From positions 124,001-188,000 of the forward strand of contig NW_021832123.1 of the NCBI RefSeq assembly GCF_006345805.1: a stretch of DNA of 64,000 nucleotides, read 5' to 3'. Below, piece by piece: positions 17,990 through 64,000 of the stretch. The notes under the pieces were generated by a model that saw only the letters and a program-made list of their open reading frames with translations, was not told where the DNA came from and ran no database searches. A program made the position numbers and the translations under genes. Numbering within the stretch: the stretch's first letter is position 1; each line of letters starts with the position of its first letter. The DNA comes from Octopus sinensis (taxonomy: Eukaryota).

Positions 17990-18520
17990 GCACTAATCCC
18001 ATGCTTTTCCGTTGTAGGCAGAAGTTTGTACTCCGGGCGCATGCTCTCCGGTGTTTTCTTGATTACGATTGCCTGGACATAAAGTCATTGACTTGTAGGG
18101 AGTTCTGGTAGTGCTTATAGAATTTGGATGTTATTCCATCCCACGTAATAACCAACGGTACGACATTCACTTTTGCATTATGGATTGACCTTAATTCTTT
18201 TGACAAAAGGTCGTATTTATGTAATTTCTCAACTTCCAATGCTTCAAAGATTGTTGAGAAGTAATCCCAATTTCGATCAGCTGGATGTTCCGAACTTTGT
18301 CATAGACAAAAATGTCCGGTTTATTATTATTGACTATAGTATCCGTCTTGATCGTCGTGTCCACACATATTTCGACCACCTTATTAGAGACAGTCGACTG
18401 AACGGAATGGGTCTTTAACTTCCGAGACTGTTTTATCCCATATTTTTGGCAGATGTTAAAATCTTCATCCTTAATTCAATTTTCTGAACTGAAATCCAAC
18501 AATATAGCAGGCACAAATCC
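17990..18520 (-). mobile_element. RLE-type retrotransposon 3' remnant
   Basis: VEICVDTTIKTDTIVNNNKPDIFVYDKVRNIQLIEIGITSQ, same family as 2734-4200. Confidence 0.8.
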
Positions 18521-18539
18521 CGTCTGGTCCGAAGAATGC

Positions 18540-19812
18540 ATGTGTCGGGTCTTCTGTGACATGGGCAACAGTGTCGCTATGGGCAGCCTGTCTTTTACGT
18601 GTTACTACGGCAATTGCAGTTGGCGAGCAACTGCAGCCCATTCAGTTGGGTGTGGGTGTTCCTGGCGGCTGCGAGTCTTCTGTCCATGCCTGTCGTTGTT
18701 TTATTAACGCCTCTACTCGTTCCAATATTCCCCTTGCCTTATTGAAATTGGATGTAATTAATTCTCTTGACCGTAGACATTTGTTGGAAGTCTGTCAAGA
18801 CCGTGTTCCACACTTGCTTCCCTTTATATCGCTTTCGTACTCGCTTCCATCACTTTTAATCGCCGGTGGTTCTTTCATTTCTTCGTCTTGTGGCGTCCAA
18901 CAGGGTGATCCCATTACTGTTCGCTCTTCCCATTACTGTTCACTCCTTTGGGCCCATTACTGTTCGCTCTTGCCGTTACTGTTCACTTTTCGCTCGAAAG
19001 TCCCTTCCGATGTCTTTTCTCAGCGAGACTGGGACAAAATTCTTTGCCGTCGATCTTCAACTGACTTGGAACCACTTCTCGACCAAAACAGACTGGCTTG
19101 TTTCCGTTCCCCCTGTCAGCCATACTCAGGCTCCTGGCTGAATGTACTCCCTTCTCCGCTTTTGGATACTGTCCTCGATATTGATTCACTCCGTTTGGGT
19201 ATCTGTAATCGCCTTGGACTCCCTGTCTGCAGACCTTACCCCTGTCGTTGTGGGGATAAAGTTGACGCCTTTGGGCTACATCCTCTGTCTTGTCGAATGA
19301 GCGCCGGCCGATTTCCTCGGCACACTGAAATTAACAATCTAATTCACAAAGCTCTGGAAAGAGCTGGTTTCCCCTCTATTCTGGAACCGACGGGCCTTGT
19401 TTTTGAAGATGCAAAACGTCCAGACGGCTGTACGCTTTTGAATCCGGGAAGCAGCTCGTTTGGGACGTCACCTGTACCGATTTTTTCGCCAAGGGTGCCT
19501 TGAATGCTACGCTTGTCGACCCGGTTCGTCGGCCGAGAAGGCCGAATTCGCAAAACTAACGAAATATAAGGATTTACTCGATCGATTTTGCTTTTGGACA
19601 ATTGCCGTCGAAACTTCCTGTGTTTTTGGGACCAAGACGCTTGCTCATCTCAAGAAACTTGGCTGCCTGTGCACCTACCGCTCCAGAGATCCGAGAGAAT
19701 TTATATTCCTTATTCAGAGGATGGCTGTTTTACGCTGGAATTGTCTTTCAATCCTGCGAGCCAGTACATAATAGCTAGATTTTTTTTGACGATTTCTCTT
19801 CATTAAAAAAAA
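18540..19812 (+). mobile_element. CRE-clade non-LTR retrotransposon (RT + zinc finger + RLE), internally deleted, poly(A) tail
   Basis: QLGVGVPGGCESSVHA, GVQQGDP, CRCG..D.FGLHPLSC..GRFPRH..IN, EPTGL..DAKRPDG, AVETS.VFG; A-tract at ~19805. Confidence 0.85.
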
Positions 19813-19852
19813 TTACACTTAAAAAAAATTTTAACAGCGTGATTTCCATTGT

Positions 19853-20484
19853 TTGGTTACGTTAGAAATATTAACGAATACAATCGAATTAAGCGAGAAG
19901 TTCAAAATTCAACAGATGCAGGGCAGACCTAATAACCCTAGTAATGAAAATAAATGGGTCTCCATTCTCGAATATTCGGTGTATTGCTACAATACAACGA
20001 TGCATTCATTTTCGAATGAGACCCCATTCAACCGTTATCGAGGAAGAATCGTCAGCAGAAACATCTTTTAATTTCGAAATACATCCGATCGGTGGTGATG
20101 ATCAATACTACAAGAAGATGAATAGGAAAATGGGCGTGCATTGTAGTAAATACAATTATGCTATAGGGGACAAAGTTGTAAATTAATTTTTAGTCTTATT
20201 AAGGTTCGGATTGCAAAGGATTACGGGACGAATCCAGCTTTAATGTTGAATAAATTCGAATCCAAGTATTCCGATACTTGTGAAATACGCGCAATTTTGT
20301 CCAATTCACGCGTAGAGGTATAGGTCGAAATTCATGGTTAGTTCGAATTTTCAAATGGTGAGAAAAAATCGGTGTTGATGTCGCGTTTAAACTAATACTA
20401 TTAAATATCTATTAATTAATTTTTAAAGATATTAGTATTAATTTGTTAAGTAGTTGCCATAGGGGCCTGATTACCCATGTCACA
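19853..20484 (+). mobile_element. Ginger-like integrase transposon 3' remnant with right end
   Basis: GRPNNP, YNTTMHS..ETPF, KMNRKMGVHCSKY..IGDK|VRIAKDYGTNP; ends ...CCATGTCACA followed by tattc. Confidence 0.75.
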
Positions 20485-21202
20485 TATTCTCTCTATTTAT
20501 GAAATTAATAACTGAGTAAAATTTTGTTTCAGACTAAGAAAAAAATCAGAGAGGAAGCGTTTGTATATTAGAAGATGGGTTATCATCAACTCTAGACAGT
20601 CTTGGGCGTTAGGATCAATGATAAAATTAGAAATAAAATCGCAAGACAAAACAATGATGTTACTGGAAAATTACAAAATTTGTTTATGTATTCAGTGCAG
20701 AACAAAGAAAAAAATGCTTCAGCAATATGCTTGAATAAGATTGATGAAGTTTATCTATCTTTATTCATACTTTAATTTAACAAAAAATAAACGTGAAAAA
20801 GAAAAAAAACTCAAAAAAAGATTTTAAAATCAGGTAAATATTGTATAGTTCAATCAAACGCTGATCGTTTTTTTCTTGACGCTTTGATTATATTCGGCGT
20901 TCTCTTCTGATTTTTATTATTAAAACTCATCTTTGACTTTTTATGAACAAAATTCGGGATTGGTCCTCACTTTAGTTGAGATCTTGTAAGTATAGTAATT
21001 GTAACGTGATATTCGACTGCTTTTTGAGAGCAGATTCAAAACAGATCGAAATTTTTATATCAAATAAAATTGTCTATATCTTTTCAAAATTTCAAAATTC
21101 ATTTGAAATTTGTTGCTTATTTCATAAATATTTGGAATCTCGGGCAATAACCTATTTTATTAAATAAAATAAAATATTTTCGATAATACTAAGCAATTTC
21201 GA

Positions 21203-28515: not shown

Positions 28516-29630
28516 TCAAACTTGTTTTCTGGTTAAGTAATCATTTTATTTGTTTGTTAGATTGGAAATTATTTTATACTAGCTCGGCAGCTCGCATCGC
28601 TCACCGCGACCTAGCTCCTGCGGAGGGCCTGTTTCATCAAACAACTATAAGTTTATGTAGATGTATAAAACTACCTGGTTTAATGTAACCCTATTCTATC
28701 GCCTGTTGATAAACGATGTTTGTCGTCCGTCCTTCCTTGGCATATATGAATAAATTTTCTCTTCTGCCTACCCTCGAGCATCCCACATACAGCTGTCCAT
28801 GTGAAAAGCACTCACTCTCTAAAAATAACCCAACTACATTTAATGACTGTCCCTGGGCCTTGTTTATTGTCATTGCACACTTTTTTTTTCATTTTTTGTG
28901 TTTATTTTTTTATATTTAATTTTTTCATTTTTCCTTTGTAATTTCCTTTTTTTTCTCTTTTTGTTTTTTACTGGCGGAAATGGGGCAGGGGGAGATGCGG
29001 CAGGCGGAAATGCGGCAGGCAAGAAAGCGACACACAAAAAGCGACACACAAAAAGATTTAATTAATTACCTTATTAAGCTGACCGTTTTTTCTTCAGCTT
29101 CGTTTTTCCTCCTTCGGTTATCTATTTAAAAAATTATTTTTGAATAATAAAAAAGTTTAGGAAAAGAGGATACCGAAAATAAATTCTATCTTTACGAAAA
29201 ACTCAAGTAAATAGTTAATATTTTTACGCAAATTCTTCTGATTGCGCTGTCAATTGGTGGTAAATTGTGTTAATGGTTGTGCTAATGTGGTTTCAACTAT
29301 CAAAGTGTTTTTCAAAATCTGTTAATTGCACACTCTATTCAAGGTCGTGCGTCAATTGGTGGTAAATTGTGTTAATGATTGTGCTAATGTGGTTTCAACT
29401 ATCAAAGTGGTTTTTCAAAATCTGTTAATTGCACATTCTGTCAAAGTCAAATATGATAATAGCTTTAATTTTGATTCATGGTCGAAAATGATATATGCAT
29501 TTAATTTTAAAGAGAAAAACATAGGATGAATTGAATTTCTTTATCGCGAATAATTGGGAGTTCATCATTGTTAATATTCTCGCTGTCGTTTTCATCAAGG
29601 ATATTCTTAATACGTGAGATTTTTGCCTTG

Positions 29631-31001
29631 AAGGTTTTAATGGACCTCATCATGAATGTCGAGGACATTCGCGGTGTTCATTTTAATCAAAATGCAGAAA
29701 ATTTTTTTTTAATTTTTTTGGGGGGGAAGGTTTTAAGGACCTCATCATGTAAGTCGAGGACATCGTAGTTGTTCATTTTAACCAAAATGCAGAAAATTTT
29801 TTTTTAATTTTTTTGGGGGGGAAGGTTTTAAGGACCTCATCATGTAGTCGAGGACATCGTAGTTATTCATTTTAACCAAAATGCAGAAAATTTTTTTTAA
29901 TTTTTTTGGGGGGAAGGTTTTAAGGACCTCATCATGTAAGTCGAGGACATCGTAGTTGTTCATTTTAACCAAAATGCAGAAAATTTTTTTTTAATTTTTT
30001 TGGGGGGAAGGTTTTAAGGACCTCATCATGTAAGTCGAGGACATCGTAGTTGTTCATTTTAACCAAAATGCAGAAAATTTTTTTTAATTTTTTTGGGGGG
30101 GAAGGTTTTAAGGACCTCATCATGTAAGTCGAGGACATCGTAGTTGTTCATTTTAACCAAAATGCAGAAATTTTTTTTTTAATTTTTTTGGGGGGGAAGG
30201 TTTTAAGGACCTCATTATGTAAGTCGAGGACATCGTAGTTGTTCATTTTAACCAAAATGCAGAAAATTTTTTTTTTAATTTTTTTGGGGGGGAAGGTTTT
30301 AAGGACCTCATCATGTAAGTCGAGGACATCGTAGTTATTCATTTTAACCAAAATGCAGAAAATTTTTTTTTTAATTTTTTTGGGGGGAAGGTTTTAAGGA
30401 CCTCATCATGTAAGTCGAGGACATCGTAGTTGTTCATTTTAACCAAAATGCAGAAAATTTTTTTTTTAATTTTTTTTGGGGGGGAAGGTTTTAAGGACCT
30501 CATCATGTAAGTCGAGGACATCGTAGTTGTTCATTTTAACCAAAATGCAGAAAATTTTTTTTTTAATTTTTTTTGGGGGGGAAGGTTTTAAGGACCTCAT
30601 TATGTAAGTCGAGGACATCGTAGTTGTTCATTTTAACCAAAATGCAGAAATTTTTTTTTTTAATTTTTTTGGGGGGGAAGGTTTTAAGGACCTCATCATG
30701 TAAGTCGAGGACATCGTAGTTATTCATTTTAACCAAAATGCAGAAAATTTTTTTTTAATTTTTTTGGGGGGAAGGTTTTAAGGACCTCATCATGTAAGTC
30801 GAGGACATCGTAGTTGTTCATTTTAACCAAAATGCAGAAAATTTTTTTTTTAATTTTTTTTGGGGGGAAGGTTTTAAGGACCTCATCATGTAAGTCGAGG
30901 ACATCGTAGTTGTTCATTTTGACCAAAACGCAGAAAAATTTTTTTTAATTTTTTTGGGGGGAAGGTTTTAAGGACCTCATCATGTAAGTCGAGGACATCG
31001 T
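29631..31001. repeat. ~95-bp tandem repeat, about 14-15 copies, differing mainly in T/G homopolymer length
   Basis: Unit aaggttttaaggacctcatcatgtaagtcgaggacatcgtagttgttcattttaaccaaaatgcagaaaa(t)naa(t)n(g)n. Confidence 0.95.
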
Positions 31002-31024
31002 ATTGCCAATTTGAAGTTGGTGTG

Positions 31025-33618: not shown

Positions 33619-34149
33619 GAATTATATTTTAAATGGGTTTTCAGAGTATTAGTATTTAAGCATTAATGGCGAAGCTTCTAACTTTAGCTTTTAAACTAAG
33701 CAATCATTCACCATTTTACGGAAATTACATTTTTTAAGAATCAAAGTTCTACTCATTTTTTTTAGAAATCTTTATTCTTTTTTTTTAATTAAGACAACGA
33801 AAATCGTTAAGTCCCAGCGGCAAGGACGCGTTGTGCGTTGCCACAAACAATGGCCAGGCCGATGCGCTGGCGGAACCAGAGGCCCTCTCTCGTGTCCTTG
33901 AGCCTCCTCCCGATGGACTGCCCGAGTTCTACTCATTAATTGTTATTTTCTACTCGGGAAAGGAAACATATTTGAGTATTTTTTATAAAGAGTTACATTG
34001 TGCAATCGTTTTTTGATATTTTTAAACTCTAATTCGCTGTTGACATTTTCAGAAATGACTAAACATTTCCATTCAGAGAATATACTTTTTATTGGATTCA
34101 TGAAAGGAGAGTATGGTGGTGAATATTCAAGTTTAAAATTTGAAATGAC

Positions 34150-44329: not shown

Positions 44330-44334
44330 TAATT

Positions 44335-47325
44335 AGAAATTTACAATAATTATTTAAAACCTTAAATCTTAAAATGTGTAATATTTTCAATTATACCTCC
44401 TAGAGAAAGTTAGAGTTTTATTTTTTAATAAAAATACGGGGTAACATAACTAACTTAATCAAAATACGATTTCAAACTATAATGTTAGTAAAGATTAAAT
44501 AAATCAAATTATTCTCGGAAATAACAAATGACCAAAATTATTGAATTTTGTCTTGTTATGAGAATGTTTTCTACTTACTGGTGCTACAAAATAACAATTA
44601 AAATAAAACCAAATTCACAAACTGTCAGTTCCAATTCGTTACAGACTTCTTTGGTGTATACATAGCCGTCATCCAGAAAATCGCATTTATCAACAGTCTT
44701 TCCTTCAAACATGTACCTTTCAGTGGAATTCAAATAATCTGAATTATTGCTGCAAAAGTAATGCACCAAATAGAAAATGGAGTTTTTCAAACGTGTCGAT
44801 AACTGCAAGTCGACCTCCCATCTTTTCACAATTATTTCTTGCGTCTGATAAAATTTGTTTCTTTTTTATTTTTTTGTAGCAAATATCTTTGTAGCAATTT
44901 GTTTTTCCTGTGATATAAAAATTGGCATTCACCTGTGTTTTCTGTGTATAGACAGTCCCATAATTTACTATCTAATCTTGAAATGTTTTTTTTGACTGAT
45001 TCTGACAATTTACTGGTGAATAATAATACAATTAACTTACTATTTAGATATTTTAATTAAGTTGACAGGATTCATAAGGCAATCATTCGTGCAATTTCCT
45101 TCAGTGGCTTCCACGTGTCTAAATCCGAGGATATGAAATAATTCGTGAGCAATCGTATTCCCCAAGTTGACTTTTTCTTGCTTCGTCTATCAATTTGTTA
45201 TATTGTGAGACATTAAGCTTTTCGAATATCATAGCTACGGCGTCCCAACTGCACACACTATTCAAAAATGCTATTCCTAATATGTCGCGAGCCGAGCGCG
45301 CGACCGAGCACTAGACGCGACCAATCAAATTTACTCAATGTCAATCAATGTCAAAATAACTTATTTTATTGATTAGATCAAGGACAATTATTATTTCTGA
45401 CTGTTATAACTTCTTAAGTCGTTTGGCATGAACTTTCATTACTGATCCATCACTATTTTCCACATTGACAAAATTGTTAGACAATTTCGCAACAATAGTG
45501 AATGGATCCCCGTATGGATGTTCAAACCTGGTTAATCTCAAGGAAGGATTTGTCCCATAATCTTTTTGAATGCGAACCTTTTAAGTAATTATAAAATAAA
45601 TACAATGTCTCCAATGTTTAATTCATATTTAGACACATGCACTCCCATCTTCCTGTTCATTCTCTTATAATATGGAGAATCCAAGTTAACTTTTGGGAAG
45701 TTGAATTCGAATTCATCTTTAGTTGAATTTAAAACATTTACTGTTAATTTCGGGAGTGTATTGAAGTTCAGCTGCCTCAACATCAGTATTTCCTAAAACA
45801 GTATTGAATCCAGGAATTCCACGATATCTCTCAAAGGGGCTAACGCCTGCAAAAAATTTAAGACAAATAATTCACCTGTAGATGAATGAGGTGTTTGATT
45901 GTACAAAAACACAGTCTTTCTTATGTGTTTTACCCACTCTTTGGTGTCATCCAAACTCATAATTTTTGAAAGGCTCCTTGTGACCGTCTGATTAAATCGT
46001 TCAACAATTCCCTGACTCTGGGGATTGTTTGGTCTTCCATGTATTTGTCGAACACAAAACTCTTCACATACTTTTGTCACATGAGAATTTTTGAATTCTG
46101 TTCCGTTGTCTGATTGGAGAAACTTGCAGGGACCAAAATCCATAAAAATATCATTCAGATTATTCGCCACCTCTACTCCACTTTTATTTTTAGATTCCTT
46201 GTAAACGCATATTTCGAATATACGTCTATTACAGACATTAACCGAAAAAATCATTGTTTTCATTTTTAAATCTACAAAATAAGTTAATTTTATACCGTTT
46301 AAGATCAATTAAATCTACTTGAAATCTTTCATTAGGTAAATCAGCAACAATATGAGTTGAATCATCATATTGTTTTAGTGGAACTGAAAATTTGCAAATA
46401 TTGCATTCTTTAACAACTTGGCGAATGATCTCTCTTCTCAATATAAAAAATCTTCGCCTACATAAGGCTTCCAAAGCATTATGTCCGCAATGATTAGCTT
46501 CATGAATCTCACGTGCAATTAATTTCATCTCTTCTAAGCTCGTGGAAGCAATTACGAGCTTGTGTAGGCCGTTTACATCTTTAAGATATAGTTTCCCCTC
46601 TTTAATTAGGAAATTTTCTGCTTTCTTTTTGAGTCGATACTTCTTATGTTTGGAAAGATCGACCTCCTCATTATTGAGGATAGATCTTAGGAAATTATAT
46701 TCATCTTGATCTTTTACAAACAAACGCTGGCCCGACATAACAAAGTGTAGACAAAATTATGCTAGCGTGGATAATATTTTATCTGGGTGAGTATGGTACG
46801 CCGGCAATTAGACTGACAGGTGGATGACAGGTATGACAGGTGTCAAAGTCGCGTCTAGCGCTCGGTCGCGCGCTCGGCTCGCGACATAATAAATCAAACT
46901 GCCATGTTTCGTATCTATTAATTCATATTATCAGGTCAACGTCAAGAATATGATTGCGTCTACAGTGCTCATCATTTTTATGTAATTGTCCAACAAACAA
47001 AAATTTGTAATGTTGAGATTCTTAAATTCATGAGGAATTATTTGTTTTATTTCGATCGTAGTTCTAATTCGGTCAAAATACTAGCAATATTTTGGATTAC
47101 TGGAAATACCGTCTGCACAACATTGAATACTTTTTGTATTTCTTCGTTTGGATTGTAAGTTTTATTGAATTTTAGCTAAAATTTTAAATCATGTGAATAA
47201 CTGTGAGATTGTCATAAATAACCAAAAGTTCTAATCGTCTATCAAACTGTTTTACTAATATATTTAAATAAATTATTCATACCTTGCATAAATGTAGTCA
47301 TCAAAACTAAAATATTTGGAAACAT
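44335..47325 (-). pseudogene. Duplicated M12B metalloprotease + C-type-lectin gene, copy 1, disrupted by a Ginger insertion and cut at the pogo insertion
   Basis: Nearly identical to 56483-57832; HELFHILGFRH at 45115-45147; Ginger 45283-46886 lies in the exon upstream of the zinc motif. Confidence 0.75.
45283..46886 (-). mobile_element. Ginger2/TDD-like DNA transposon (retroviral-type integrase), full length 1.6 kb
   Basis: ~39-bp TIR TGTCGCGAGCCGAGCGCGCGACCGAGC..; 5-bp TSD TAATA (45278-82, 46887-91) confirmed by the empty site in the paralogue near 57394; HCG...CNIC zinc finger, QVDLID, LQSDNGTEF, NPQSQGIVERFN; four micro-introns and one frameshift. Confidence 0.92.
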
Positions 47326-47361
47326 TATTTTTTAGTACAATAGTGCTATATATACTGAAAA

Positions 47362-47503
47362 TATATTGATTCTTTAAAATAAATATCGTGCACTTTTTAA
47401 ATAAATATGATATTGATTCTTTTAAATAAATATCGTGCACTTTTCAGATAAATATGATATTGATTCTTTAAAATAAATATCGTGCACTTTTCAAATAAAT
47501 ATG
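47362..47503. repeat. ~47-bp tandem repeat, 3 copies, upstream of protease copy 1
   Basis: atattgattctttaaaataaatatcgtgcacttttcaaataaatatg repeated; about 1.4 copies at the paralogous site 57871-57935. Confidence 0.85.
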
Positions 47504-48293: not shown

Positions 48294-48309
48294 GATATGG
48301 TACTTTTGT

Positions 48310-49240
48310 CCTTTTTGCCTTGGGCGTTAACAGTATCGCTCACTCTGTTCGATCCCCAGTTAACTGGATGACGCAACCATTTGCGGCCCCCGATGCTGTT
48401 TTTGATGACCTTCGTTCTATCTTCCCTTCCCTTTCGGACATCGGCTTATCTATAAATGCCGATAAATCCGAAATCGTGAACATTGCCTTAAATCCGAGTG
48501 ACTTCACTGCTTCAATTTCCACGTGCCGAGGCATTCTTTCAGACGTCCGGATTACGGACAAATCAAATCTTACGATCCTCGGTGCCCCCATGGGGCCTTC
48601 TGCCATCGAATGCTCATTCGCTGGAAAAATTTCCCACCTATCCAAAATGATCGAGAAGCTTAAAATCATCTAGCCTCATGTGGCTCTTTTCCTTCTCCGA
48701 AACCACTTTTCCGTCCCAAAGATCCTTTACACCCTAAGATGTGCACCCTGCTTTCAAAGAGGCGATTTTCTTTCCGACCTTGACAATATCCTCAAGCTCG
48801 GTACGAGCTCTCTTTGCAATCTGGCTTTCGACGATCCAGGCTGGATTCAGGCATCCCTGCCTGTGCGCTGGGGCGGCCTTGGCTTGAGATCCTATTCCGA
48901 TCTTGCCCTCCCCGCATTCCTATCCGCTCACTACGCTTCTCGTACTCTCTCAGACATCGTTCTTAGAAACCTCCCCGAACGGAAATTGTCTGAAGATTAC
49001 TCTGCAGCCGGTGGTCGGTGGGAGGCTCGGTTTGGTTCGAAGCTGCCCAATTCTCAATCTGTACAGCGTCGAAATCTCTTGTCAGGCAATTTTCGAAGGC
49101 CTTCTTCCTGTCTCCAATCAACACCGTGTCGCTTGCCTCCGTGCAGGTCGATGCGAAGGCAGCGGTGTCTGGTTAAAGGCTCTCCCTTCCATCGGGAACC
49201 TGGTGGACAAGGAATGCCTAACTCTATCCAGTTTTTAGTT
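48310..49240 (+). mobile_element. CRE-clade retrotransposon internal fragment
   Basis: PFCLGVNSI, GLSINADKSE, ILGAPMG, LFLLRNHFSVPKILYTLR, QASLPVRWGGLGLR. Confidence 0.8.
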
Positions 49241-49279: not shown

Positions 49280-50570
49280 TTTTTTTTTTTTTTTTTTTAG
49301 ATTTTAAATGTTATATGTAATTAACAAATAGTTATTAACTAACTAAATTCCCGGCATCGTAAATGGAAACACAGTTTCCACGTACTATGGCCAAGGAAAT
49401 CCTTTCGAAAAGCCACTTGGACTCGCGTGGGTCTCCCCGTTTATGGGAGATCATGCGGCCAAGCTTTTTTTAGAAAGGAAAGAGACTTTTCGCCGATGAC
49501 GCCGGAAGTCTCGACGGCGATGGGAGTGAACAGATACCGTTCAGAGAGCTCCTTGTACTTTCCAATCTTCATCTTCTCGGTTTTGCGAGAGACTGAGCCA
49601 GGCTCGACAGCTGAAGAAGGAAGGTTGAGCTCCGAGAAAGTGTCTGAACACGTCGCATCCCATAACAGAGACTTGCCGAACTCAAACGGGAAAGTCGATA
49701 GGCCGTCGGGTCTTTTTCCGTCTCCCCTCGCAAGCCCGACGGGTTCGAGGATTGATGGAATCCCAGCGGCCGTGAGCCCCCTCTGAATAACGTCGTTAAG
49801 TGCTGCATGGCGTGGTGCGCGCCCTGCACTGCGACGACAGGAAAGGGGATGTAGACCAAAACGGTCAATGACAGCACCACAACGACATTTGTGTATTTCG
49901 CAGATTTCCAATCCAAGACGCAATGATAAACCAATTCGTAGGCAATCTTTGTCTAATAGGTTACCGGTGGAAGGGACAGGGAGAGCATCCAGCCAGGCCC
50001 CACTCCCTGTGCAGCAGCCTGCGCGGAGACATGCAAGTCTGTGCTGATCGAAATTTTTGCGTAGATGTACGTCAAGAGCTTCACAAGAAATGGCATCCCA
50101 TTGAGCTTGGATACACGGGTCACTGGGTCTTTTGTTGTACAATGAATCCCACAGGTCCAAAGCGGCCACGTGATCAACTGACATTTTTCGTTCGGGTAGG
50201 TTTCTGAGAACAATGTCAGTGAGGACACGGGATGATGCCGTTGACGAAAGGAAAGCAGGAAGAGCGATAGACACGGGAGAACGGAGTCCAATCCCACCGC
50301 GGCTTACAGGCAGGGTGGATTGAATCCAACCAAGAGGGTCGAAACGTACGTTGCATAGCGACTCTGCTCCGGACTTCAGAATATTTTCAATAACGGAAAG
50401 GAGATTTTGTTCGTGAAAACACGGAGAGCTTCTTAATGTATATAGGAGCTTCGGAGTTGAAAAGTAATTACGGAGAAGAAAGAACCCGACATGAGCGTCG
50501 ATGAGAGAGAGTCTTTGAATAATGCATGACAGAACAGCTGCCTTGTCAATAAGAGTTTGAGACAAACAGT
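49280..50570 (-). mobile_element. 5'-truncated CRE-clade retrotransposon with poly(A) tail, abutting the 3' UTR of a Ginger element
   Basis: 374-aa ORF with CRCG..D..GLHPLSC..GRAPRH..LN, DGKRPDG, LWDATC, IAVETSG; poly(T) on plus strand 49280-49298. Confidence 0.9.
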
Positions 50571-51680
50571 GACAGTGACGTAAATTAAACGTAAAATGAA
50601 ATTTAAAATTAATTATTTTGTAATTTTTTTGATTCTTTTCATGTGAACTATCTTGCTATCTCCATTTGAAAATTCTACATTCACGCGGTTATTTGGTAAG
50701 ATTGATTTGATCGTGGCAGTATTACCATAAGCACTTTCAAATTTTTTCAATGAAAAAGCCGGATTCGTTCCTAAATCTTTATGGATCCTTATCTATACAT
50801 AAAATTTATTTTAGTTACCTTATCTTCAACTGAAAATTAAGATTTTGACACATGAACCCCCATTTTTTATTCATTTTTTGGAAATAGGGGCTATTCAAAT
50901 TTGGGGGTTCAAAATTAAAATCAAAGTCTTCTTGTTTTTCATCACATTTCTCATCTTCATCGAGATTCTCTGCATCCACGTCATCCGGAATTACAGTTAA
51001 TTCCTCTGTATTTCATAAAAGGTGACTTCCCTAAAAATAAAATGGATACCAGTTGATGAATATACAGTAAGGTTATAAAAATAGAAAGCTTCACTTATGT
51101 GATTTGTCCAATTTTTATCCCCTTCACGCTTCATCACTTTTGATAAGGATCTTGTTAAGGTTTGATTAAACCTTTCCACAATTCCTTGGCTTCCGGGGTT
51201 ATTTGGACTGCTGTAGACTTGCATAATCTTGAATCTTTTGCACAATTCATGAATATGTGCATTTTTAAATTCAGTCTCATTGTCAGACTGCAAAATATGG
51301 CAAGGACCAAATTGTAAAAAAAATTGAAGAAGATTTTTGGACACTTCATGTCCACTTTTATTAACAAGATTACGTGTAAACACGAATTTAGAAAAAACGT
51401 CGATGACAACTAATATCCATGCAAATGAATCATTTAAGTGTTTAAATCTACAATAAACAAATGAATTACATTTTTAAGTCAATTAAATCCACCTGAAATC
51501 TTCCATTAGGAATACTTGTAGTTATATGGTTTTCCTCATCATATACCTTCAGAGGAGTTGAAAAAAAAACAAATTTGACATTCTGAAACGACTTTTCTAA
51601 CAACATTTCTTTTAATTGTAAAGAAATTGTCATGGCAGTGCTGTTCTAAAGCATTCTGCCCGCAGTGAGTAATAACATAT
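50571..51680 (-). mobile_element. Ginger-like integrase transposon, truncated
   Basis: HCGQNALEQ, FQVDLIDLK|, WILVVIDVFSKF, LQSDNETEF, NPGSQGIVERFN, KDLGTNP; stop at 50613-50615; micro-introns (e.g. 51031-51049). Confidence 0.85.
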
Positions 51681-52000
51681 TATTTATCTAGAAATGCTGT
51701 AATATGACATGCCAAATGTGGGAAATAATCCATGTTGTGCTTACATAAATTGTCTCAAAGTAAAGTTACCCGAGACCACTAGACATAGAAAAACAAGCAA
51801 AGGTGTATATCTGGTCGGTCGTGCTTCGGAAGATATTGGAGAACAAGCAAGTGAAGGAAAACATTGATTTTCTATGACTTCCTCTAGAAGGAAGCTTGTA
51901 ATGTATATCTTCAAATTAGGATTGCAAATAGATTACCAAAAACAAATCTGGATTCTCTGATCGCTCTAAGACTGGATAAAATCATAGTTTAATAGAGAAA
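51681..52000. repeat. Unclassified interspersed repeat, copy 2
   Basis: Similar to 42180-42520; truncates the Ginger element. Confidence 0.85.
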
Positions 52001-53843: not shown

Positions 53844-54014
53844 TTCACAAACTAACATTTAATAACAAAAATTAATTTTGATTCAAAAATTGAATAATAA
53901 AATATAAAAAACTACTCGGTCTGATTTTAGCCATAATTTAAAACGTTATGGTTAGAAAAGCTAAACCGTAAAATTGTTAATATAAACAGATTTCGAGTAG
54001 AGAATAATATATTA

Positions 54015-55278
54015 TGTCGCGTCCCACACGAGCTACCCATCCCATGGTGGTTACATGTCACCTGTCAATAAATAATAATGCCTGTCATGGTGACTGTCAA
54101 ATTTAATAATTAATTTAATTGCATTAATTTCTAATCAATAATCGTTTCAACAATAAAAATTTATTAAAATAAAGCGTCTACGTTTTTTTAACTTGATTCA
54201 TATTAACTATTTTAGACTTCCCGGAACTTGTTTTAATCTGTTAAATAAAATAATAATAAAATAGACCTCTAGTCGATTGTTTGACAAAATTTGAACAACT
54301 TCAGCAGGTTCTCCATATGGGGATTCAAATCGGTTTAGCCTTAGGGAAGGATTTGTCCCAAAATCCTTTAGAACTCTAACCTAACAATTATTCACTAAAA
54401 TACTCCGCTCCCAATTGAAAAATCGTATTTCGATTGATGAACATTCATTTTTTTATTCATGCGTTTAAAATATGGTGAATTTAAATTAGGTGGAAAAAAA
54501 TTCAATATAAAATCACTAGCATCAAGTTGTCTAGCATATGTTATTCAAAATTTACCTGAAACATCTAAAATATTTTCTACATCCATATCCTCTGATGATA
54601 CATGATAAAAATCATCCAAACACTCACTTTCTTTGAATCGTTCATTTGGTCTTTTGGCAATCACATGGTACTTAGAATCTGAAACCTGCTATATAAGTTT
54701 TTTATTTTATACTTTAAGTGGAATGGAAAACTTGCATATTGAGCACTCTTTGACGACTCGTTCGATAATTTTACGCTTTATTGTAAAATAAGAGTGTAAA
54801 CATTCCTGTTGCAGTTTACGAATTCCAGAATGGCTATTCCGGTGAATAGAATCTGCAATAGTTTGCATCTCACTCTCATTATCCATGCATATAACTAGTT
54901 TGTGCTTTTGAAATCTTTCGTCTTTGAGGTATAAGCATTCATCAATGACAATAAATTTAGTGGATTTTTTAGTTAATTTATATTTTATTTGTCTTGAAGA
55001 TGTCTGTACAGGTTGGCCATTTAAAATATTGACTATAGTATGATATTCTGAGATATTTTTTACAAAACCTATTATTACATATACAGGGGAAAACATTTTA
55101 AAGAGGACATGTTGAAAATTGAATAATAACGCTAAAAATATTAAATATGCCCACACGAGTAACGAATGATTAAACCACATTAATTATGACATCTGACAGC
55201 CAATGACCTCGTAAAAATGATTGATTGACAGGTGACATGTAGCCAGCATGGGATGCGTAACCACCATGGGACGCGTCA
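54015..55278 (-). mobile_element. Ginger-like DNA transposon, internally deleted (integrase core lost)
   Basis: ~55-bp imperfect TIRs (TGTCGCGTCCCA...CATGTCACCTGTCAAT), 5-bp TSD TATTA (54010-14, 55279-83); HRNSHSG...CSIC and KDFGTNPSLRL retained, DDE core missing. Confidence 0.88.
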
Positions 55279-55599
55279 TATTACGATGAATAATCTGACG
55301 TGTATTTAAGGATTATCCAACCGATGTATTAACCAGAACAACGAGTAATGATTCATTTTTAATTAATGCGTCTGCTCTCAGTTAATTCTCCTCTTAGAGC
55401 AAAACCAATTTCTTCGATAGGCATACTCATCCCTCTCACAGGACGGCCTCCTCAGTGGCTGCAGTCGGCAAAGATTTCTGGTATTCTTCGACGGGATTAT
55501 TCTAAACTTATGTTTTTTATAAATTTTTCCAGATAAAAATCTGAGATTTAATACTCAAGATTATGACTTATTGATAAGGATGGTCTTTTAACATTTTTA

Positions 55600-57832
55600 T
55601 CTTACTTTAATTGACTAATCTTACAGAATACAATTCAAATATCATTCTTTAAATTTTAAAATCCGAAGTATCTCAAAATGGCTTATTAATATATTGCAGT
55701 CCTTAATATGGCCACTTCTGGCAGATATAAAGAATTTCGCTAAAAAAGTTTCATTATCGCAAAAAAACTCAAAATAAATATATTGACATTATCAAAGTTT
55801 TTTCTTTTTATGGTTCCGTTGTTTAATTCCTTCAATTTTCTAAAAATAGTTAGATAAATTCAAAAAAACCTCAAGATTGGCTATACATGTTTGCATCGAT
55901 CTCTAAATCAAATAAAGAACACAAAACCACCTTTCTTCTTAGCCCACAATTGAGGACAATGTTCTAAAAGAGTCAACAAATCACACACAACACCTTGATT
56001 TCCTCAATCGGGCGTTTTGTTATCTCAAATATTTTGACCAAATCATCGACGGCATCTCCTTCCGGGACAGTGCAATCCACGGATATTTCTGCCTTGATTA
56101 ACGCCTTGCTGAACTCGTGGTGTTCTTGTGCTGTATAGTCGCCTGTCTTATATTTTATATTGAAAAAATCCTCCAATTCGTGCTTGCTAACCCACGAACT
56201 GAACAAATATCAGAAAGCAGGTCATTTCTTACTATATTCCACTTCCAAAGTAGCGAATTAGGACTTTGTTTTCCGTAGAATTGATAATCTAATTATTGTA
56301 TTTTATGACCAACTTTGACTGGCCAGACTTTGTAAGTAGTGTTGTATAGTATCCTAAAATATTTTGACTCATAAAAAGTTGTGATTTCGGCTATTTAAAT
56401 CAAATTAAACCATTTTATATTGCAGGACATTGTACAATTTCAAATTCGATTTTTATTTGATCAAATTAATTAAATAAATATTTAGAAATTTACAATAATT
56501 ATTTAAAACCTCAAATCTTAAAATGTGTAATATTTTCAATCATACCTCTTAGGACAAGTTAGGGTTTTGTTTTTTAATAAAAATACGATTTCAAACTATA
56601 ATGTTAGTAAAGATTAAATAAATCAAATTATTCTCGGAAATAACAAATGACCAAAATTATTTAATTTTGTCTTGTTATGAGAATTTTTTCTACTTACTGG
56701 TGCTATAAAATAACAATTAAAACAAAACCAAACTCACAAACTGTCAGTTCCAATTCGTTACAGACTTCTTTGGTGTATGCATAGCCGTCCTCCAGAAATT
56801 CGCATTCACCAACAGTGTTTCCTTCAAACATGTACCTTTCAGTGGAATTCAAATAATCTGAATTATTGCTGCAAAAGTAATGCACCAAATAGAAAATAGA
56901 GTTTTTCATACGTGTCGATAACTGCAAGTCGACCTCCCATCTTTTCACAATTATTTCTTGCGTCCGATAAAATTTGTTTCTTTTTTATTATTTTGTAGCA
57001 AATATCTTTGTAGCAATTTGGTTTTCCTGTGATATAAAAATTGGCATTCACCTGTGTTTTCTGTGTATAGACAGTCCCATAATTTACTATCTAATCTTGA
57101 AATGTTTTTCTTGACTGATTCTGACAATTTACTGGTGAATAATACAATTAACTTACTATTTAGTTATTTCAATTAAGTTGACAGGATTCATAAGGCAATC
57201 ATTCGTGCAATTTCCTTCTGTGGCTTCCACGTGTCTAAATCCGAGGATATGAAATAATTCGTGAGCAATCGTATTCCCCAAGTTGACTTTTTCTTGTTTC
57301 GTCTATCAATTTGTTATATTGTGAGACATTAAGCTTTTCGAATGCCATAGCTATTGCATTCCATTTGCACACACTATTAAAAATTGCTATTCCTAATAAA
57401 TCAAACTGCCATGTTTCGTATCTATTAATTCATATTATCAGGTCAACGTCAAGAATATGATTGCGTCTACAGTGCTCATCATTTTTATGTAATTGTCCAA
57501 CAAATAAAAATTTGTAATGTTAAGATTCTTAAATTCATGAGGAATTATTTGTTTTATTTCGATCGTAGTTCTAATTCGGTCAAAATACTAGCAATATTTT
57601 GGATTTCTGGAAATACCGTCTGCACAACATTGAATACTTTTTGTATTTCTTCGTTCGGATTGTAAGCTTTATTGAATTTTAGCTAAAACTTTGAATCATA
57701 TGAATAACTGTGAGATTGTCATAAATAACCAAAAGTTCTAATCGTCTATCAAACTGTTTCACTAATATATTTAAATAAATTATTCATACCTTGCATAAAT
57801 GTAATCATCAAAACTAAAATATTTGGTAACAT
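55600..57832 (-). CDS. Secreted reprolysin-type (M12B) zinc metalloprotease fused to C-type-lectin-like domain(s), copy 2; 3' end uncertain
   Basis: Manual splicing: MLPNILVLMITFMQ...LELLVIYD...DAIIFLT...LLGIAIFNSVC...TIAHELFHILGFRH (57231-57263)...CLMNP Met-turn; then CYKDICYKII...ARNNCEKMGGRLAVIDT...VCEF (CTL); further exons CPKRFEVLNNY...AEITTFYES suggest a second CTL-like unit. Confidence 0.72.
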
Positions 57833-59318
57833 TATTTTTTAAGTACAATAGTACTATATATACTGAAAATATATTGATTCTTTAAAATAAATATCGTGCA
57901 CTTTTCAAATAAATATGATATTGATTCTTTAAAATTTGATACAAATTCGATTAATGTCAACATGAATTAGTAAAATGTTTATATCATTTATAAGTAATAA
58001 AAATAAATCGAGTTTAGAGGTGAGTTTAGAAGTTTATTTAGAAATATCAAACAATGAAAAAAAAATCAAACACTTAAAAATGCATGAAGACAGGTAAAAC
58101 AAGGGAAATAAAGGTGTAGACTGAAAGGTCTTTTTAAACTCTTTCTCATTTGTTTTCGAAATAAAATGAATTAAACATTAATGCAAATATCTTTTATTAA
58201 TATAACTTCGTTGCGTAACACGATGAGATCTTATCTATCTTTAAGCGCCTTGGAACGTGGTATATGAACAACAACAGAGGAAAGTGTAGGCCGAATAAAA
58301 CCATAAGTGAACGTCTTTATTGCCTCTACAGGGCGACTTCTTATAAACATTGACTTTAGAGTAATGTATAAACTCAAAAAACACAAGAATACATTATTTG
58401 TTCAATCTCAGAGCGTTTCATAAGACCCCTTTTGTATAGAACTACTTAAGTTGCGAGTTGCGTGTAATGTTCAAAATTCGTTTGTATTTTGTTTGACAGA
58501 CTGCGATGTTCTATATTAAAAATACTGTTTGGGATAATTTATAGATGATACAAATCCGTCTATAAATAAAAATACATCCTGCTTCTCTAATAGTGACAAG
58601 ACTAATGCAAAATGAATAAGTTTTTTTCCATAACCCCTGAATTGCACATCAGAATGGCAACCCAAGCACAAACAACAAACATAACTAGCTAATCAAATGC
58701 AAAGAGTTATTTGTACCGATCAACATACACCTCCAAATTTTCTTACTTATATAGCAAATAAATTACCAGCTTTTAGTTAGAATAAGTTAATTTTAACCTC
58801 AATCCAATGTTTAAAGAAGTAGGTTCTTAATAAATGACAATGGCCTTATTTTGTACGGTTCGGTAGGGGCTCAAGTTAAGAAATATGACATCAATATCTG
58901 CAATTTAGTTATACATTGCCAAATTGAATGCTTTATCATATTTATATATTTTTTGAAAATGTGAAAGTACTTAACATAAGTTTCTTTAATTTAATCGTTT
59001 TGTTGTTCGTGATTAAAAATTTCCACATTGAAATGATAATAATTTTCCATTTATATTTTTCTTTAAAACTTTGAACTTGAACTATTTTTTAACATCTAAA
59101 TAAAGTTGACTTTGATAGTAATGAATATTTCATTCTCGAAGAGTCCATTAACTTTAGAAGATATAGGTAATATCAAGTTTGTGATTTTAGAAAAATAAAA
59201 TGCAAAATGATAGTCGAATACTTTTAAAAAGCCGACATTCAAATTTACTTTTTTGAAACTGTTTGAAACATGTTTTAAATAATCGAATCACAAGAGAAAA
59301 CATCAAGGAAAAACGTGA

Positions 59319-61069
59319 TCACTCAACTCGACTGAGAGGCGGCACACGACTGACCCGAACAAGTCCTCGGTCAGTCCTCATTTGTGCCTCCTTCCAAACT
59401 ACGCCCAAGTCATCCCCAACTTTCATGTGACTCTTCAATCCATCATACAAATCCTACCAAAATACGTGGAAGCACTTTTTTCTTAGCATTAAGTTGAACT
59501 TGATTTGTCTGAGGAGGAAATCCATCAAAATAAACGACATCCCCCGCCTGTGACTGTTCAGGCACAATCAACGGCTCCACTCTGCCAACATCACCACAAA
59601 CCAAACGTCTCCCTCTCCTCTGATTCATCCCTCCTTCCCTTAGCACACATAATCATCCCCTCAGACATAATCCCCCGCAAATTCGCCGGCTTCAAATTCA
59701 CCAAAAACACAAAATTATTTCCCGACAATTCCTCTTCAGTGCACGAATTCACCAACGAAGAACAAATTGTGAGTATTCGGCCTCCCCCCACGTCTACCCT
59801 CTCCACAAATAACGAATCCGCGTTCTCGTGCTGCCACTTTGATTAAAAAACTAACTTTTTTGACGGAAATAATTTTCCCAACACGGAAATCGCAGACAGT
59901 GGGGTCAGAAACAACGGATTCAACGGTAGGGGTCACCACACGTGCTTTATTATCACCAGGATACGCCGAGGTGACAATCTTCTGCATTTTTGGCGACTCA
60001 AACGCCTTTAGAATTGGGGCAAGAAGATAATTTATTTCCCGTGAAAGTGCAGCCTTGACATCGGCAGGGTGAAGTTTAAGAGACAAAAAGTCCTCCTCAA
60101 CCTGCTCGTAGGACAAGTACTCGACAGTCCCCAATTCAGGAGACTCAACAAAGAAGACTTTGACAGATTTAAAGTCGAGGATTGGAAACACGACCATTTT
60201 AAGAAATGCGAGGACTCCGTTGTCCTCGAGTGACCCCGGCATACAGAAAGCCTTCCTGATTTTATTTTGAACCACTTTGGGTGGGTCAAGAAAGTCAATT
60301 TTAGAATCAATGTCTGAAGCACTCATTTTGCCCCCCGTCAGTCCAGGAACTACAATGAGGGGGAAATAGTGACCCATTGGGTTCATCAAATGAGCTCTCT
60401 TGGCATACCCCAACTGTGGGAGGTACTTTTCCGCGAATGTAAAAATCTTTCTTTGATCGACTCCCCCGAACTGAGCATCCACTTTGAGATATTCTTCATC
60501 GAGTGCCTGAAGACAGGGATAAAGCAATCCCCCAAGGAGAGGATGGTCCACTTGTTTGACCACCTCACTTCCTGCCTTCCTGGCATCGTGTTGAGTCACC
60601 AAAGTGGTCATTTTAAACATATCAATCACATAGTTCCTATTTGTAGTCAAAATTACTCGACCTGTCCAATTGGTAGTCAGTGCCCTTCACAAAAACAAGG
60701 TCGTCGGTGGGGATTCCCAACGAGGACATGACTGCGGATATCACCTCCCGGTAGTAATCCACTCGGTGGTTGACCAGGTCCCAACCGGCCTTCAGGTTAT
60801 CGAGAACAGCGTGGAGATCTGCCAAGAGAATTGTGACTTGGCAGCCCGCTTTGAGGAGTTGTGCTATTTTTACTAGTGGCACAAAATAGCCAATGTGGGG
60901 TTTCCCTGTGGTGGCGGTTCCCCAGTACACTTTGAGAGGGCGATGGGAAATAATTTCTTTTATTTTCTCCTCTCCTAAGACTTCCTAGGAGTCTTTAATG
61001 TGATCTAACCTGCAGTCCTCGTGTTATTAAAGAATATTTCTCATCAACGTTTACAACCACACGTGACAT
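59319..61069 (-). CDS. YARS1: Cytoplasmic tyrosyl-tRNA synthetase with C-terminal EMAP-II-like domain
   Basis: GLQ|EVLG (25-nt intron 60985-61009), [71 protein letters not shown]. Confidence 0.95.
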
Positions 61070-63071
61070 TTAATTAATTAATGCTGTTGACAAAAAAATT
61101 ACAATTTTAAATAAACATTCCCAACTTCATTCTCAAAAAAAATTGAACAAGTCAACAAACAATATATTCTCTCTGTACTAAATTACGCAAGTTTAAAGTG
61201 GGTTTTCTGTCTATCTACATGTTCCACTATAATACTTTGATCAGTATAAAACAAGGCTATGAGCCTGAAATGAACACTCATCGACCATCTGGACTATTAT
61301 GTGACATGGGCTGCGCGATACCTATGGGCCGCGTGATACCTGACGTGACCTTGAAATGTGCAATTATGACATTGATGGGATTAAATTATAAATCTTTTAA
61401 TTAGACCGCGACTCATTCTTATCATTTAATAATTTACTAAATTAGCTAAAGACTCTCTCATTTTGACAAAAAATTATATTTGTAGGAATTTAATTATCAG
61501 AAATTGATTTTTTGGTGGAAAACCTAAATTTCTTGAGTTATTTCTAGCGTGCAAGTATATTTTGCAGCAATGTCCTCGTACAAAGGTTATGTAAAGAATA
61601 GTTTGGAATATCAAATTTTAAAAGATGCTTTACAGGATAAATTTCATGAACATCTTACAAAGCAAAAAAAATATAGACTAGTTAAGAAAATTGAAAATTT
61701 TACTGTAATTAATGAAAGGTATCATACAAATTGTAAATGTATAGATTGTATCTTAAATGTGAGAATTCAGATCACAAGCTAGTGATTTGTCTAGACAATG
61801 AACCCGAAATGGAAATCGTTGCTAAAAGTTTGCATGACTTCTCGCATGGAGGAGTTAACAAAATTGAATATGAATGTCGACAACGATATTTCACAGTTAA
61901 AAATGAGATTATTCGAAAAGTCATTCGAAACTGTGAAATTTGTAAATTTGCGCGACCCTTAAAAGTTTTAACTTTTTTAAATCCTAGATTGGAGATATAA
62001 ATAACCATGTCTTTGCACTTGCCCAAATGAAAGATTTCAGATAGATCTTATAGATCTGAAAAGTTTTTCTACTATAAATAAAAATTTTAAATGGATTTTA
62101 ACGGTCATTGACGTATATAGCAGGTTAGTTTTTTCAACAATTTTTATAGATTTGCATTTGCGAGGCCGCTCTACACTAAGTCCTCAAATGAAGTTTGTGA
62201 AAACCTCAGATCATTATTTTTCTTAAATGGTCCGTGTCAATTTCTTCAGTCCGATAATGGGACTGAATTCAAGAATCGTGAAATGACCAATCTATGTGAG
62301 GAATTCAATATCAAACGAATTCACGGAAGGCCAAACAATCCCCGCTCACAAGGGATTGTCGAACGCTTCAACCAGTCAATTACAAGAAAAATGGCAAAAA
62401 TGATCGACAATGATAATAAAAAGTGCCTGAAAAAATTAGAAAATGCAGTGTACAGTTATAACATTTCTGTCCACTCATCTTCTAATGAGAGCTCTTTTGA
62501 AAGATACCGGGGAATAAGTGGAATAAATACAATATTTTATGGTTGTAATTATAAAATTATTTCTTAGATAATTGAAGTAATGATTTGTTGAGTCCTGATC
62601 AAGTCGATGATGCAAACAATTGTCCGAGTCCAATTGAAAATTCATGTAATTTGAATTTCTATATGTAGATGATTGTAATTATTCGTTTACAAGTCCGAAA
62701 AGATTTCAGTTCGAAATCAACCTCATTGATCCTAATTCTAATTATTACAAAGCGATGAACAGAAAAATGAATGTTTACAATAGTAAGTATGAATTTAGTG
62801 TTGGTGATAAAGTATGCATAAAAATTAATGTTTAGGTTCGAGTTAAAAAAGACTTTGGAACAAATCCTTCGTTGCGACTGGATAAGTTTGAATCTCCATA
62901 TTATCCATCTGCAGAAATTATCAGTATTTTATCAAACAATCGCGTTGAGGTAGTTTAAACATTTAAATTTAATAGATAAAAAATTCGATGAGCGAAATTT
63001 CGATTGTGCCAATGTCCAGACTTAAAAAATAATTAACAAGTTATTATTCTTTGAAGTTTAATATTAATTAC

Positions 63072-63667
63072 GAGTACGGTTTGCATCCCCTCGCTTGCCG
63101 GCGGAGTGCAGGTCGTGCCCCCCGTCACAGTGAACTCAACTCAGTCATACAGAGAGCCCTCGCTTCAGCAGGCATCCCGTCAATCCTTGAACCTGTTGGA
63201 TTGGATAGAGGGGATGGCAAACGCCCTGACGGCATGTCCACCTTCCCCTACGAGCAGGGGAAATCCCTTATTTGGGATTCTACCTGCTCGGACACGTTCT
63301 CGCTGGGAAATCTCGCTCTGTCCGCCGCCAATCCTGGGCACGCTTCCAGGCAGGCCGAGGAGCGAAAGATTCTCAAGTACGGCCACCTCTCCAACTCGCT
63401 GCTCTTTACTCCAATTTCCGTGGAGTCCTCCGGGATCTTCGGTCCCAAGACACTCCGCTTCCTTCGCTCGGTCGACGGATTACAAGGACTAGTCACGATC
63501 CAAGAGAGTTTTCTTGGCTTCTGGAACGTCTGTCGATTGCTGTGATCCGAGGGAACGGCTTCGCCATTCGCGAGGCTGGTCGGGTGTCTCGTGAGGCCTT
63601 TAATTAACTTAGCTATCTTTAATTTCTTTCTTGCTTTCATAACAAAGATTTAATATTAAAAAAAAAA
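63072..63667 (+). mobile_element. 5'-truncated CRE retrotransposon with poly(A) and 11-bp TSD, inside the Ginger 3' UTR
   Basis: GLHPLAC..GRAPRH..LN, DGKRPDG, IWDSTC; atattaattac at 63061-63071 and 63668-63678. Confidence 0.9.
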
Positions 63668-63683
63668 ATATTAATTACAATAT

Positions 63684-63755
63684 CGTGAGGCCTTTAACTA
63701 ACTTAGCTATCTGTAATTTTTGTCTTGTTTTATTTCCAAAAAAAAAAAAAAAAAA
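63684..63755 (+). mobile_element. Second, extremely 5'-truncated CRE insertion (3' end + poly(A)) with 10-bp TSD
   Basis: cgtgaggcctttaactaacttagctatc resembles the 3' end of the adjacent CRE; attacaatat at 63674-63683 and 63756-63765. Confidence 0.8.
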
Positions 63756-64000
63756 ATTACAATATTGACATTAAGTTAAGCTTCAAGGTCACGTCAGGTA
63801 TCACGCGGCCCATAGGTGTAACGCAAACCATGTCACATATTATACTAATCTTCTTAGAACATCCAAATATAAAAAAAACACAATTCCTATTCGTTTCCCG
63901 TAAATCCACTGCTCTAAATGTGCTAAATAAAAAATGGTTGTTCACTGAAGAATACGCCTGAAAAGCAATACTCCTAACTCAAAATTAATGGCCGAACCAA

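Follow-up and report, generated by a model that had tools for sequence, protein, structure and literature searches.

The DNA just behind the integrase stop codon of Ginger-A, a small DNA transposon, is a hotspot for insertion of CRE retrotransposons, and this hotspot is real and replicated. It is strong yet holds only a few percent of CRE insertions, and the Ginger-centred and CRE-centred views agree on this. It is apparently undescribed in the literature and apparently a new form of TE-into-TE preference. The window (the whole stretch of 64,000 nucleotides analysed here) is gene-dense, with ~36% GC; its features are collected in Table 1. The introns of the Ginger gene are 26 nt long, and in the account of PMC13644364 introns this short are known in animals only from myxobolids and the dicyemid Dicyema. 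The closest named homolog of the CRE elements carries an octopus label. Judged by sequence, the genome of the window is likely that of a small parasite or cobiont, likely a dicyemid.

A Ginger-A element with two CRE insertions

Without inserts, Ginger-A is 1847 bp long, with 116 bp from the stop to the right end. Its intron-split gene encodes an integrase with an H2C2 zinc finger and an rve DDE core (rve match, E 2.6e-7). Pfam matches to the Ginger integrase were rve, rve_3 and Integrase_H2C2, RT was absent nearby, and a PY-like motif lies close to the C-terminus. The element has TGT ends, a 56-bp TIR and an AT-rich 5-bp TSD (TATTA, TAATA or TATGG in different copies). In the description of Ginger2/TDD elements in PMC2836005, the features common to both are TGT..ACA ends, a TIR of 50 to 180 bp, H2C2 plus DDE and an AT-rich target. 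The 5-bp TSD is that of TDD-4/5 in the same description, whereas metazoan Ginger2 is given there a TSD of 4 bp; unlike metazoan Ginger2 in that source, the Gingers found here are also small (1.6 to 1.95 kb) and have 26-nt introns. On the minus strand at 59736-60984 lies a host tyrosyl/tryptophanyl-tRNA synthetase gene (Pfam tRNA-synt_1b, E 2.8e-30), which starts ~300 bp from the left end of Ginger-A.

The original prediction held that two separate CREs had inserted behind the Ginger-A stop, each with its own poly(A) and TSD. This was indeed the case. CRE1 is flanked by a 12-bp TSD (AATATTAATTAC, copies at 63060-63071 and 63667-63678) and CRE2 by an 11-bp TSD (AATTACAATAT, copies at 63673-63683 and 63755-63765). 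The nicks lie at +27 and +33 from the stop, 6 bp apart, with 5' junctions at ~+38 and ~+44, and CRE2 occupies the most reused nick of Ginger-A. A duplicate of the locus (L061/L236; 99% identical to window positions 60239-64000) is present on the same contig at ~222000-227200, 40 kb downstream. The outer flank is shared, and the target there is single and empty, which restores the target of the two insertions; the Ginger-A of the duplicate carries no CRE but different insertions (522 bp near the 5' end and 1585 bp in the body). Since the 3' end of CRE2 recurs in L026, L050, L218 and L229, and thus represents a second subfamily, and since the same-contig duplicate has an empty target, a tandem duplication or misassembly of 63684-63754/5 was excluded.

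A third CRE had been placed behind the stop of another Ginger family, and it does lie in the 3' UTR of Ginger-C. The fourth, described as ending next to a Ginger remnant, abuts the integrase coding body of Ginger-D ~560 bp upstream of the stop and is not in a UTR. A fifth CRE in the window (33755-33930) was absent from that list; it lies behind the stop of a remnant that we take to be Tc1/IS630-like from a PYSP motif, with no match in the Pfam scan. A further CRE fragment at 48296-49240 (plus strand), without a 3' end, is antisense to the Ginger-C UTR and adjoins it at ~+75; it is outside the counts. Another repeat occurs in two copies that are 92 to 97% identical (44330-47427, split by Ginger-B, and 56479-57935), and a tandem array of ~14 units of 95 to 97 bp occupies 29630-31002.

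Table 1. Transposable elements of the window and their parts
Feature	Position	Strand	Remarks
CRE-C copy	~18500..19830	+	end abuts coding body of Ginger-D remnant, not UTR
Ginger-D 3' remnant	19880..20486	+	UTR empty
Short CRE	33755..33930	-	13-bp TSD; 5-7 bp after stop (33945-33943) of Tc1/IS630-like remnant (presumed)
Ginger-B, complete	45284..46886	-	3' UTR empty, internal negative
CRE-B copy	49280..50570	-	inserted ~10-25 bp after Ginger-C stop; degenerate TSD
Ginger-C remnant	50613..51800	-	stop 50615-50613; rve match E 1.5e-12
Ginger-E, internally deleted	54010..55283	-	3' UTR empty, internal negative
Ginger-A (Ginger2/TDD-like DNA transposon, family A)	61300..63837	+	TGT..ACA ends, 56-bp TIRs, TSD TATTA
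Left TIR, Ginger-A	61300..61355	+	TSD at 61295-61299
Integrase stop codon, Ginger-A	63030..63032	+	opens 116-bp 3' region; hotspot is its first 60 bp
CRE1, 5'-truncated CRE-A copy	63070..63668	+	RLE domain, 3' UTR, poly(A)
CRE2, 71-bp 3' end of second CRE-A subfamily	63684..63754	+	poly(A)
Right TIR, Ginger-A	63782..63837	+	TSD at 63838-63842

The hotspot seen from the Ginger side

Ginger-A copies were collected from 30 loci found by DNA search and 27 more found with a 29-bp anchor placed on the stop. Removal of 7 duplicates of a single locus reduced the set to 50 independent loci. Ten of these carried 12 CRE insertions at +0 to +52 after the stop, or 4.0/kb (L062 twice, L064, L070, L082, L085, L086, L088, L260, L267, L278, L280). 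This count excludes three other inserts of the zone: one of 57 bp with poly(A) but no match to CRE (L274), a LINE that is not a CRE (L088) and a stretch of poly(T) alone (L085). The body of Ginger-A contained 1 CRE in 43.3 kb of aligned copies (2 with one ambiguous case), and the 5' 200 bp contained 2. After subtraction of the window's own two events, 10 events in 2.94 kb after the stop stood against 1 in the 43.3 kb of body (3.4/kb versus 0.023/kb; binomial P 1e-11, or 6e-7 allowing a 3.5x sequence preference). The predicted enrichment behind the Ginger stop was replicated in the 27 held-out copies, where CRE insertions numbered 4 over the first 50 bp past the stop and none over the 400 bp before it (P 4e-4 flat, 0.017 allowing 3.5x). 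The genomic background was taken from 20 fixed 10-kb stretches (200 kb), in which 14 of 19 raw CRE 3' ends were real by eye. Compared with this background the zone is enriched 36-49-fold, or ~35-50x, a figure somewhat inflated because very short inserts are easier to spot against a reference.

If CREs inserted uniformly and insertions in the body were lost or missed, selection or ascertainment alone would produce such a pattern. The first 30 Ginger-A loci had been ranked by how well they matched the last 283 bp, a criterion that conceals inserts in that part, and the easier detection of very short inserts also bears in this direction. However, the anchor-derived held-out set gave the same result, hAT-like and other inserts were readily seen in the body, and the UTR rate exceeds a background that includes insertions of all ages. 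Moreover, internally deleted Ginger-A copies have been mobilised in trans and therefore an intact ORF is not required. We consider this explanation extremely unlikely.

The inserting CREs belong to at least seven families with 32 to 66% C-terminal identity. The nick near +33 is common to five CREs and the L274 poly(A) insert (six events). Ginger-C had 7 events in 6 of 24 independent loci, all within ~180 bp of the stop, at 0 (three times, antisense), +10-25, +137 (twice, sense) and +175, so that nicks 0 and +137 were reused; the seven include one UTR-only fragment whose assignment was made by eye. Ginger-B and its relatives were much cooler, with 3 of 30 loci hit, two of them in related families and all antisense. 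Ginger-D loci were inspected by eye and are outside the tallies. Over the three Ginger families 12 insertions were sense and 10 antisense; the shared orientation noted in the original prediction thus holds within the window but not beyond it. A weaker cluster is present in the 5' non-coding end of Ginger-A (L069, L213, L278/280, plus a non-CRE poly(A) insert in L236). Outside the right TIR, no CRE ends were found in 20.8 kb within 300 bp, compared with 8 in the 47.8 kb beyond; an open neighbourhood around Ginger insertions was rejected, there being no excess outside the TIR. The preference is independent of CRE family and orientation and confined to the inside of the element.

The same collection yielded three observations on other insertions. 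Position 490 in the body of Ginger-A carries three different inserts at one TCTAGA site (L083, L085, L089), presumably hAT-like from their end motifs. In L110 and L279, a Ginger-B-like and a Ginger-A element inserted independently at the same TAATG site of a Ginger-C 3' UTR. A non-autonomous Ginger-C subfamily (L097-L117) has its interior swapped for a telomere-like array of TTAGGG variants, 50-350 bp long and ~135 bp before the stop.

CRE insertion sites across the genome

In CRE-A and CRE-B, the RT is followed by a CCHC knuckle and an RLE motif (C-C-H-C, RH, E, R/KPD, D). This is a close match, with small departures in spacing, to the SLACS/CRE pattern as outlined in PMC12857005, in which RT precedes a CCHC zinc knuckle and a PD-(D/E)xK endonuclease. 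Longer homologs carry RVT_1, and one homolog is labelled SLACS (41% identity). The CRE-A 3' pattern gave 126 exact matches, 100 of them listed; 116 instances in 113 loci were examined and clustered into 98 sites, with few residual duplicates. These copies have the hallmarks of TPRT: poly(A) in 80 of 98, a called TSD in 38 of 98 and variable 5' ends.

Specificity of CRE for the Ginger 3' UTR, as originally proposed, was not borne out. Besides the window's two, only 2 of the 96 CRE-A sites examined lie just behind a Ginger stop (L056 and L230; the Ginger of L230 was identified by its similarity to that of L253); the other 94 are elsewhere, among them 1 at the 5' end of a Ginger and 1-2 within Ginger bodies. 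Since Ginger C-termini occur twice in 200 kb, 0.06-0.14 CRE-A sites would be expected behind them, compared with the 2 observed (P 0.002-0.009, or 0.08 if the target is generously set at 0.5% of the genome). A target logo with the candidate core aattac/ttac had been suggested, and a motif was indeed found, but only a weak one: the 38 sites with a called TSD share WA|TTW at the nick, in DNA that is 76-78% AT within 25 bp. No target sequence is conserved among the Ginger families, and neither nick nor orientation is fixed: nicks in Ginger-A range from +0 to +52, and both orientations occur over the three Ginger families. A single target sequence is thus not what CRE-A uses, given the 2 of 96 sites in Ginger 3' UTRs and the shortness of the motif.

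The 3' tails of CRE-A are highly variable and nested, the pattern that repeated short 3' transduction should leave: the 80 copies with poly(A) have ~55 kinds of tail, and the other 18 of 98 have no poly(A). The tail in L012/L013 contains 22 nt identical to the antisense Ginger-A UTR; most simply, a CRE resident in a Ginger UTR would at some time have been the source of new copies. The CRE-A tail in L230 resembles the antisense Ginger-D UTR. In L011, L025, L050, L184, L051, L187 and L215, a CRE had inserted either right at the 3' end of another CRE or immediately beyond it, and in L011 a second copy shares the nick. Another CRE lay within ~100 bp of ~11 of 98 CRE-A copies, versus 0.8% expected; at other loci 3 of 64 were flagged, none of them clean. 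A CRE count for left flanks was confounded and is excluded here.

Contribution of local sequence

A sequence model (AA|TT and AT-richness) was trained on 32 non-Ginger TSD sites of one family, after 6 Ginger or duplicate sites had been dropped. It gave the zone a 2.7-3.4x preference and 7-10% of element-wide insertions, with unstable coefficients. Its top-ranked positions were +0 and +35 after the Ginger-A stop, and the nicks fall at the best AATT motifs. Local motif and AT content as the full cause were rejected, since they explain ~3x only, compared with 35-50x. Enrichment beyond AT content, as had been predicted, is thus present, with the reservation that the modelled ~3x comes from 32 sites of one family. 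The regional excess over local sequence is ~tenfold.

An extended feature of the DNA beyond the short model, such as flexibility, melting or phasing of A/T tracts, might still account for this excess. The first 60 bp after the Ginger-A stop have an AT content of 82%, and the model places them among the top 3% of background windows; one nick accounts for six events, and the zone contains 2 of the element's 8 TAATTA sites. Hot spots of the RLE-type EhLINE are ascribed in PMC1635306 to DNA structure together with the nick motif, the motif by itself being insufficient in that account. On the other hand, the model falls well short of the observed excess and 24 other WAATTW sites of Ginger-A are almost unused. 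Targeting of cruciforms or palindromes was rejected, the sites being no more palindromic than matched controls (4.59 versus 4.76 +/- 0.23). A pure preference for DNA sequence or shape therefore appears doubtful to us.

Gene ends of other elements

Non-CRE LINEs were found in the same zone as the CREs (L088, L152/153). Because these LINEs and divergent CRE families use the same zone, a property of the target is indicated. CREs were also present behind Tc1-, pogo- and hAT-like stops (window 33943, L193, L212, L255, L004). Among loci selected without regard to CRE, a CRE was present at 2 of 10 DNA-transposon ends (one of these found through its CRE) and at 0 of 32 LINE 3' ends. Closeness of CRE sites to gene ends in general showed no clear signal in four tests, some of them insensitive. 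It was 1 of 112 versus 0.4% in one and 38 of 165 versus 18.5% with a noisy model in another (P 0.08). Open frames of 90 or more codons lay beside 11 of 165 CRE sites and 25 of 330 controls; recognisable TE C-termini were found at 7 of 165 versus 4-6 of 330 (P 0.05-0.14), scored by eye and not blind, with a Pfam scan that covered 90 case frames and excluded controls.

The difference between DNA-transposon and LINE ends would also be seen if a transposase or host factor inside the TIRs bent, exposed or nicked the DNA or recruited the CRE particle. Such tethering, or an effect of the element's ends, would gather insertions 60-140 bp inside both ends, and indeed the clusters in Ginger-A keep within the element, at 64-116 bp from its right end and ~85-141 bp from its left. 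In Ginger-C, however, the UTR is 300-440 bp long and the events follow the stop, far from the TIR; furthermore, one and the same partner would have to serve seven divergent CRE families as well as other LINEs. We regard this tethering or end effect as unlikely.

Shared cargo and hitch-hiking

According to the original prediction, the Ginger 3' UTR is a safe haven from which CREs could hitch-hike on Ginger transposition, and Ginger copies with identical CRE cargo should then be found at different loci. Three groups with shared cargo were found (L064/65/68, L278/280, L092/94/96), but by its flanks each was one locus, so that the same cargo at different loci was seen in 0 of 3 groups, in a test to which a moved single copy is invisible. 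Internally deleted Ginger-A copies have spread over many loci; thus, cargo-bearing copies could in principle spread too, but none was seen to do so. Evolved targeting of the Ginger 3' UTR by CRE would agree with a strong, replicated hotspot in which the cargo spares ORF and TIRs, and with the antisense Ginger-A sequence in the L012/L013 tail, as from a former source copy in the UTR. It is difficult to reconcile with the location of 94 of the 96 CRE-A sites examined elsewhere in the genome, the missing conserved target, the use of both orientations and the 5' truncation of most CRE cargo in Gingers. We judge this explanation very unlikely; a dedicated targeting or hitch-hiking system is, on present evidence, not indicated by the data.

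Discussion

RLE retrotransposons are known mainly as site-specific elements of rDNA, spliced leader genes and telomeres. Here, a many-family CRE radiation without sequence specificity has a sharp regional preference nonetheless. We give about an even chance to the explanation that low-specificity, polyadenylated CREs favour the open termination zone at the AT-rich end of a small transposon gene with a promoter. CREs would nick at WA|TTW in AT-rich DNA throughout the genome with low specificity; the AT-rich end of the small Ginger gene would be open, nucleosome-poor DNA, in which transcription would terminate after the stop. Accessibility at such gene ends would supply the ~tenfold excess over local sequence, and LINE fragments, being mostly promoterless, would not be open DNA. 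A further possibility, which appears doubtful to us, is that a tropism for the ends of genes of active DNA transposons is inherited and shared within the CRE lineage, the DNA transposons then offering a renewable landing zone and an occasional source locus; the route of such a tropism could conceivably be the 3'-end processing machinery or the transposase-bound end.

A literature search found no paper on nested insertion of CRE non-LTR retrotransposons in Ginger (supplements and Repbase were outside its scope), and the main text of the Dicyema genome paper (PMC6736024) contains neither 'Ginger' nor 'transpos'. As presented in PMC1950540 and PMC6719617, Tx1L and Tx2L of Xenopus likewise are non-LTR retrotransposons inside DNA transposons, Tx1D and Tx2D. 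Tx1L, however, is described there as having a sequence-specific APE endonuclease and one target site, whereas the elements studied here are of the RLE type, comprise seven or more families and use several nicks in both orientations, with ~2% of CRE-A copies in a Ginger UTR. The CRE clade is called 'mostly target-specific' in PMC4640811; unlike CRE1/2, SLACS, MoTeR and FoTeR, the CREs described here have no fixed target, as is evident from 98 site clusters with nothing but the WA|TTW motif. They resemble EhLINE/EhSINE of Entamoeba histolytica, which according to PMC1635306 are likewise non-targeted elements of a compact, AT-rich genome with hot spots beyond the nick motif; in that account, unlike here, the hot spots are not tied to the ends of DNA-transposon genes. 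Tourist elements in Tourist and nested maize families, as covered in PMC6719617, likewise show a preference rather than specificity for other TEs, but these are DNA elements, and the preference reported here is limited to a 60-bp zone after the stop.

As far as the data go, no dedicated parasite-on-parasite system is seen here. Over their short life, one in five Ginger-A copies gained a CRE within 55 bp, and a multicopy zone of 60 bp with dozens of independent events is a natural assay of TPRT site choice beyond the nick motif. If the CRE lineage does have an inherited tropism, the hotspot would exemplify targeting of a region rather than of a sequence, intermediate between site-specific and randomly inserting RLE elements.
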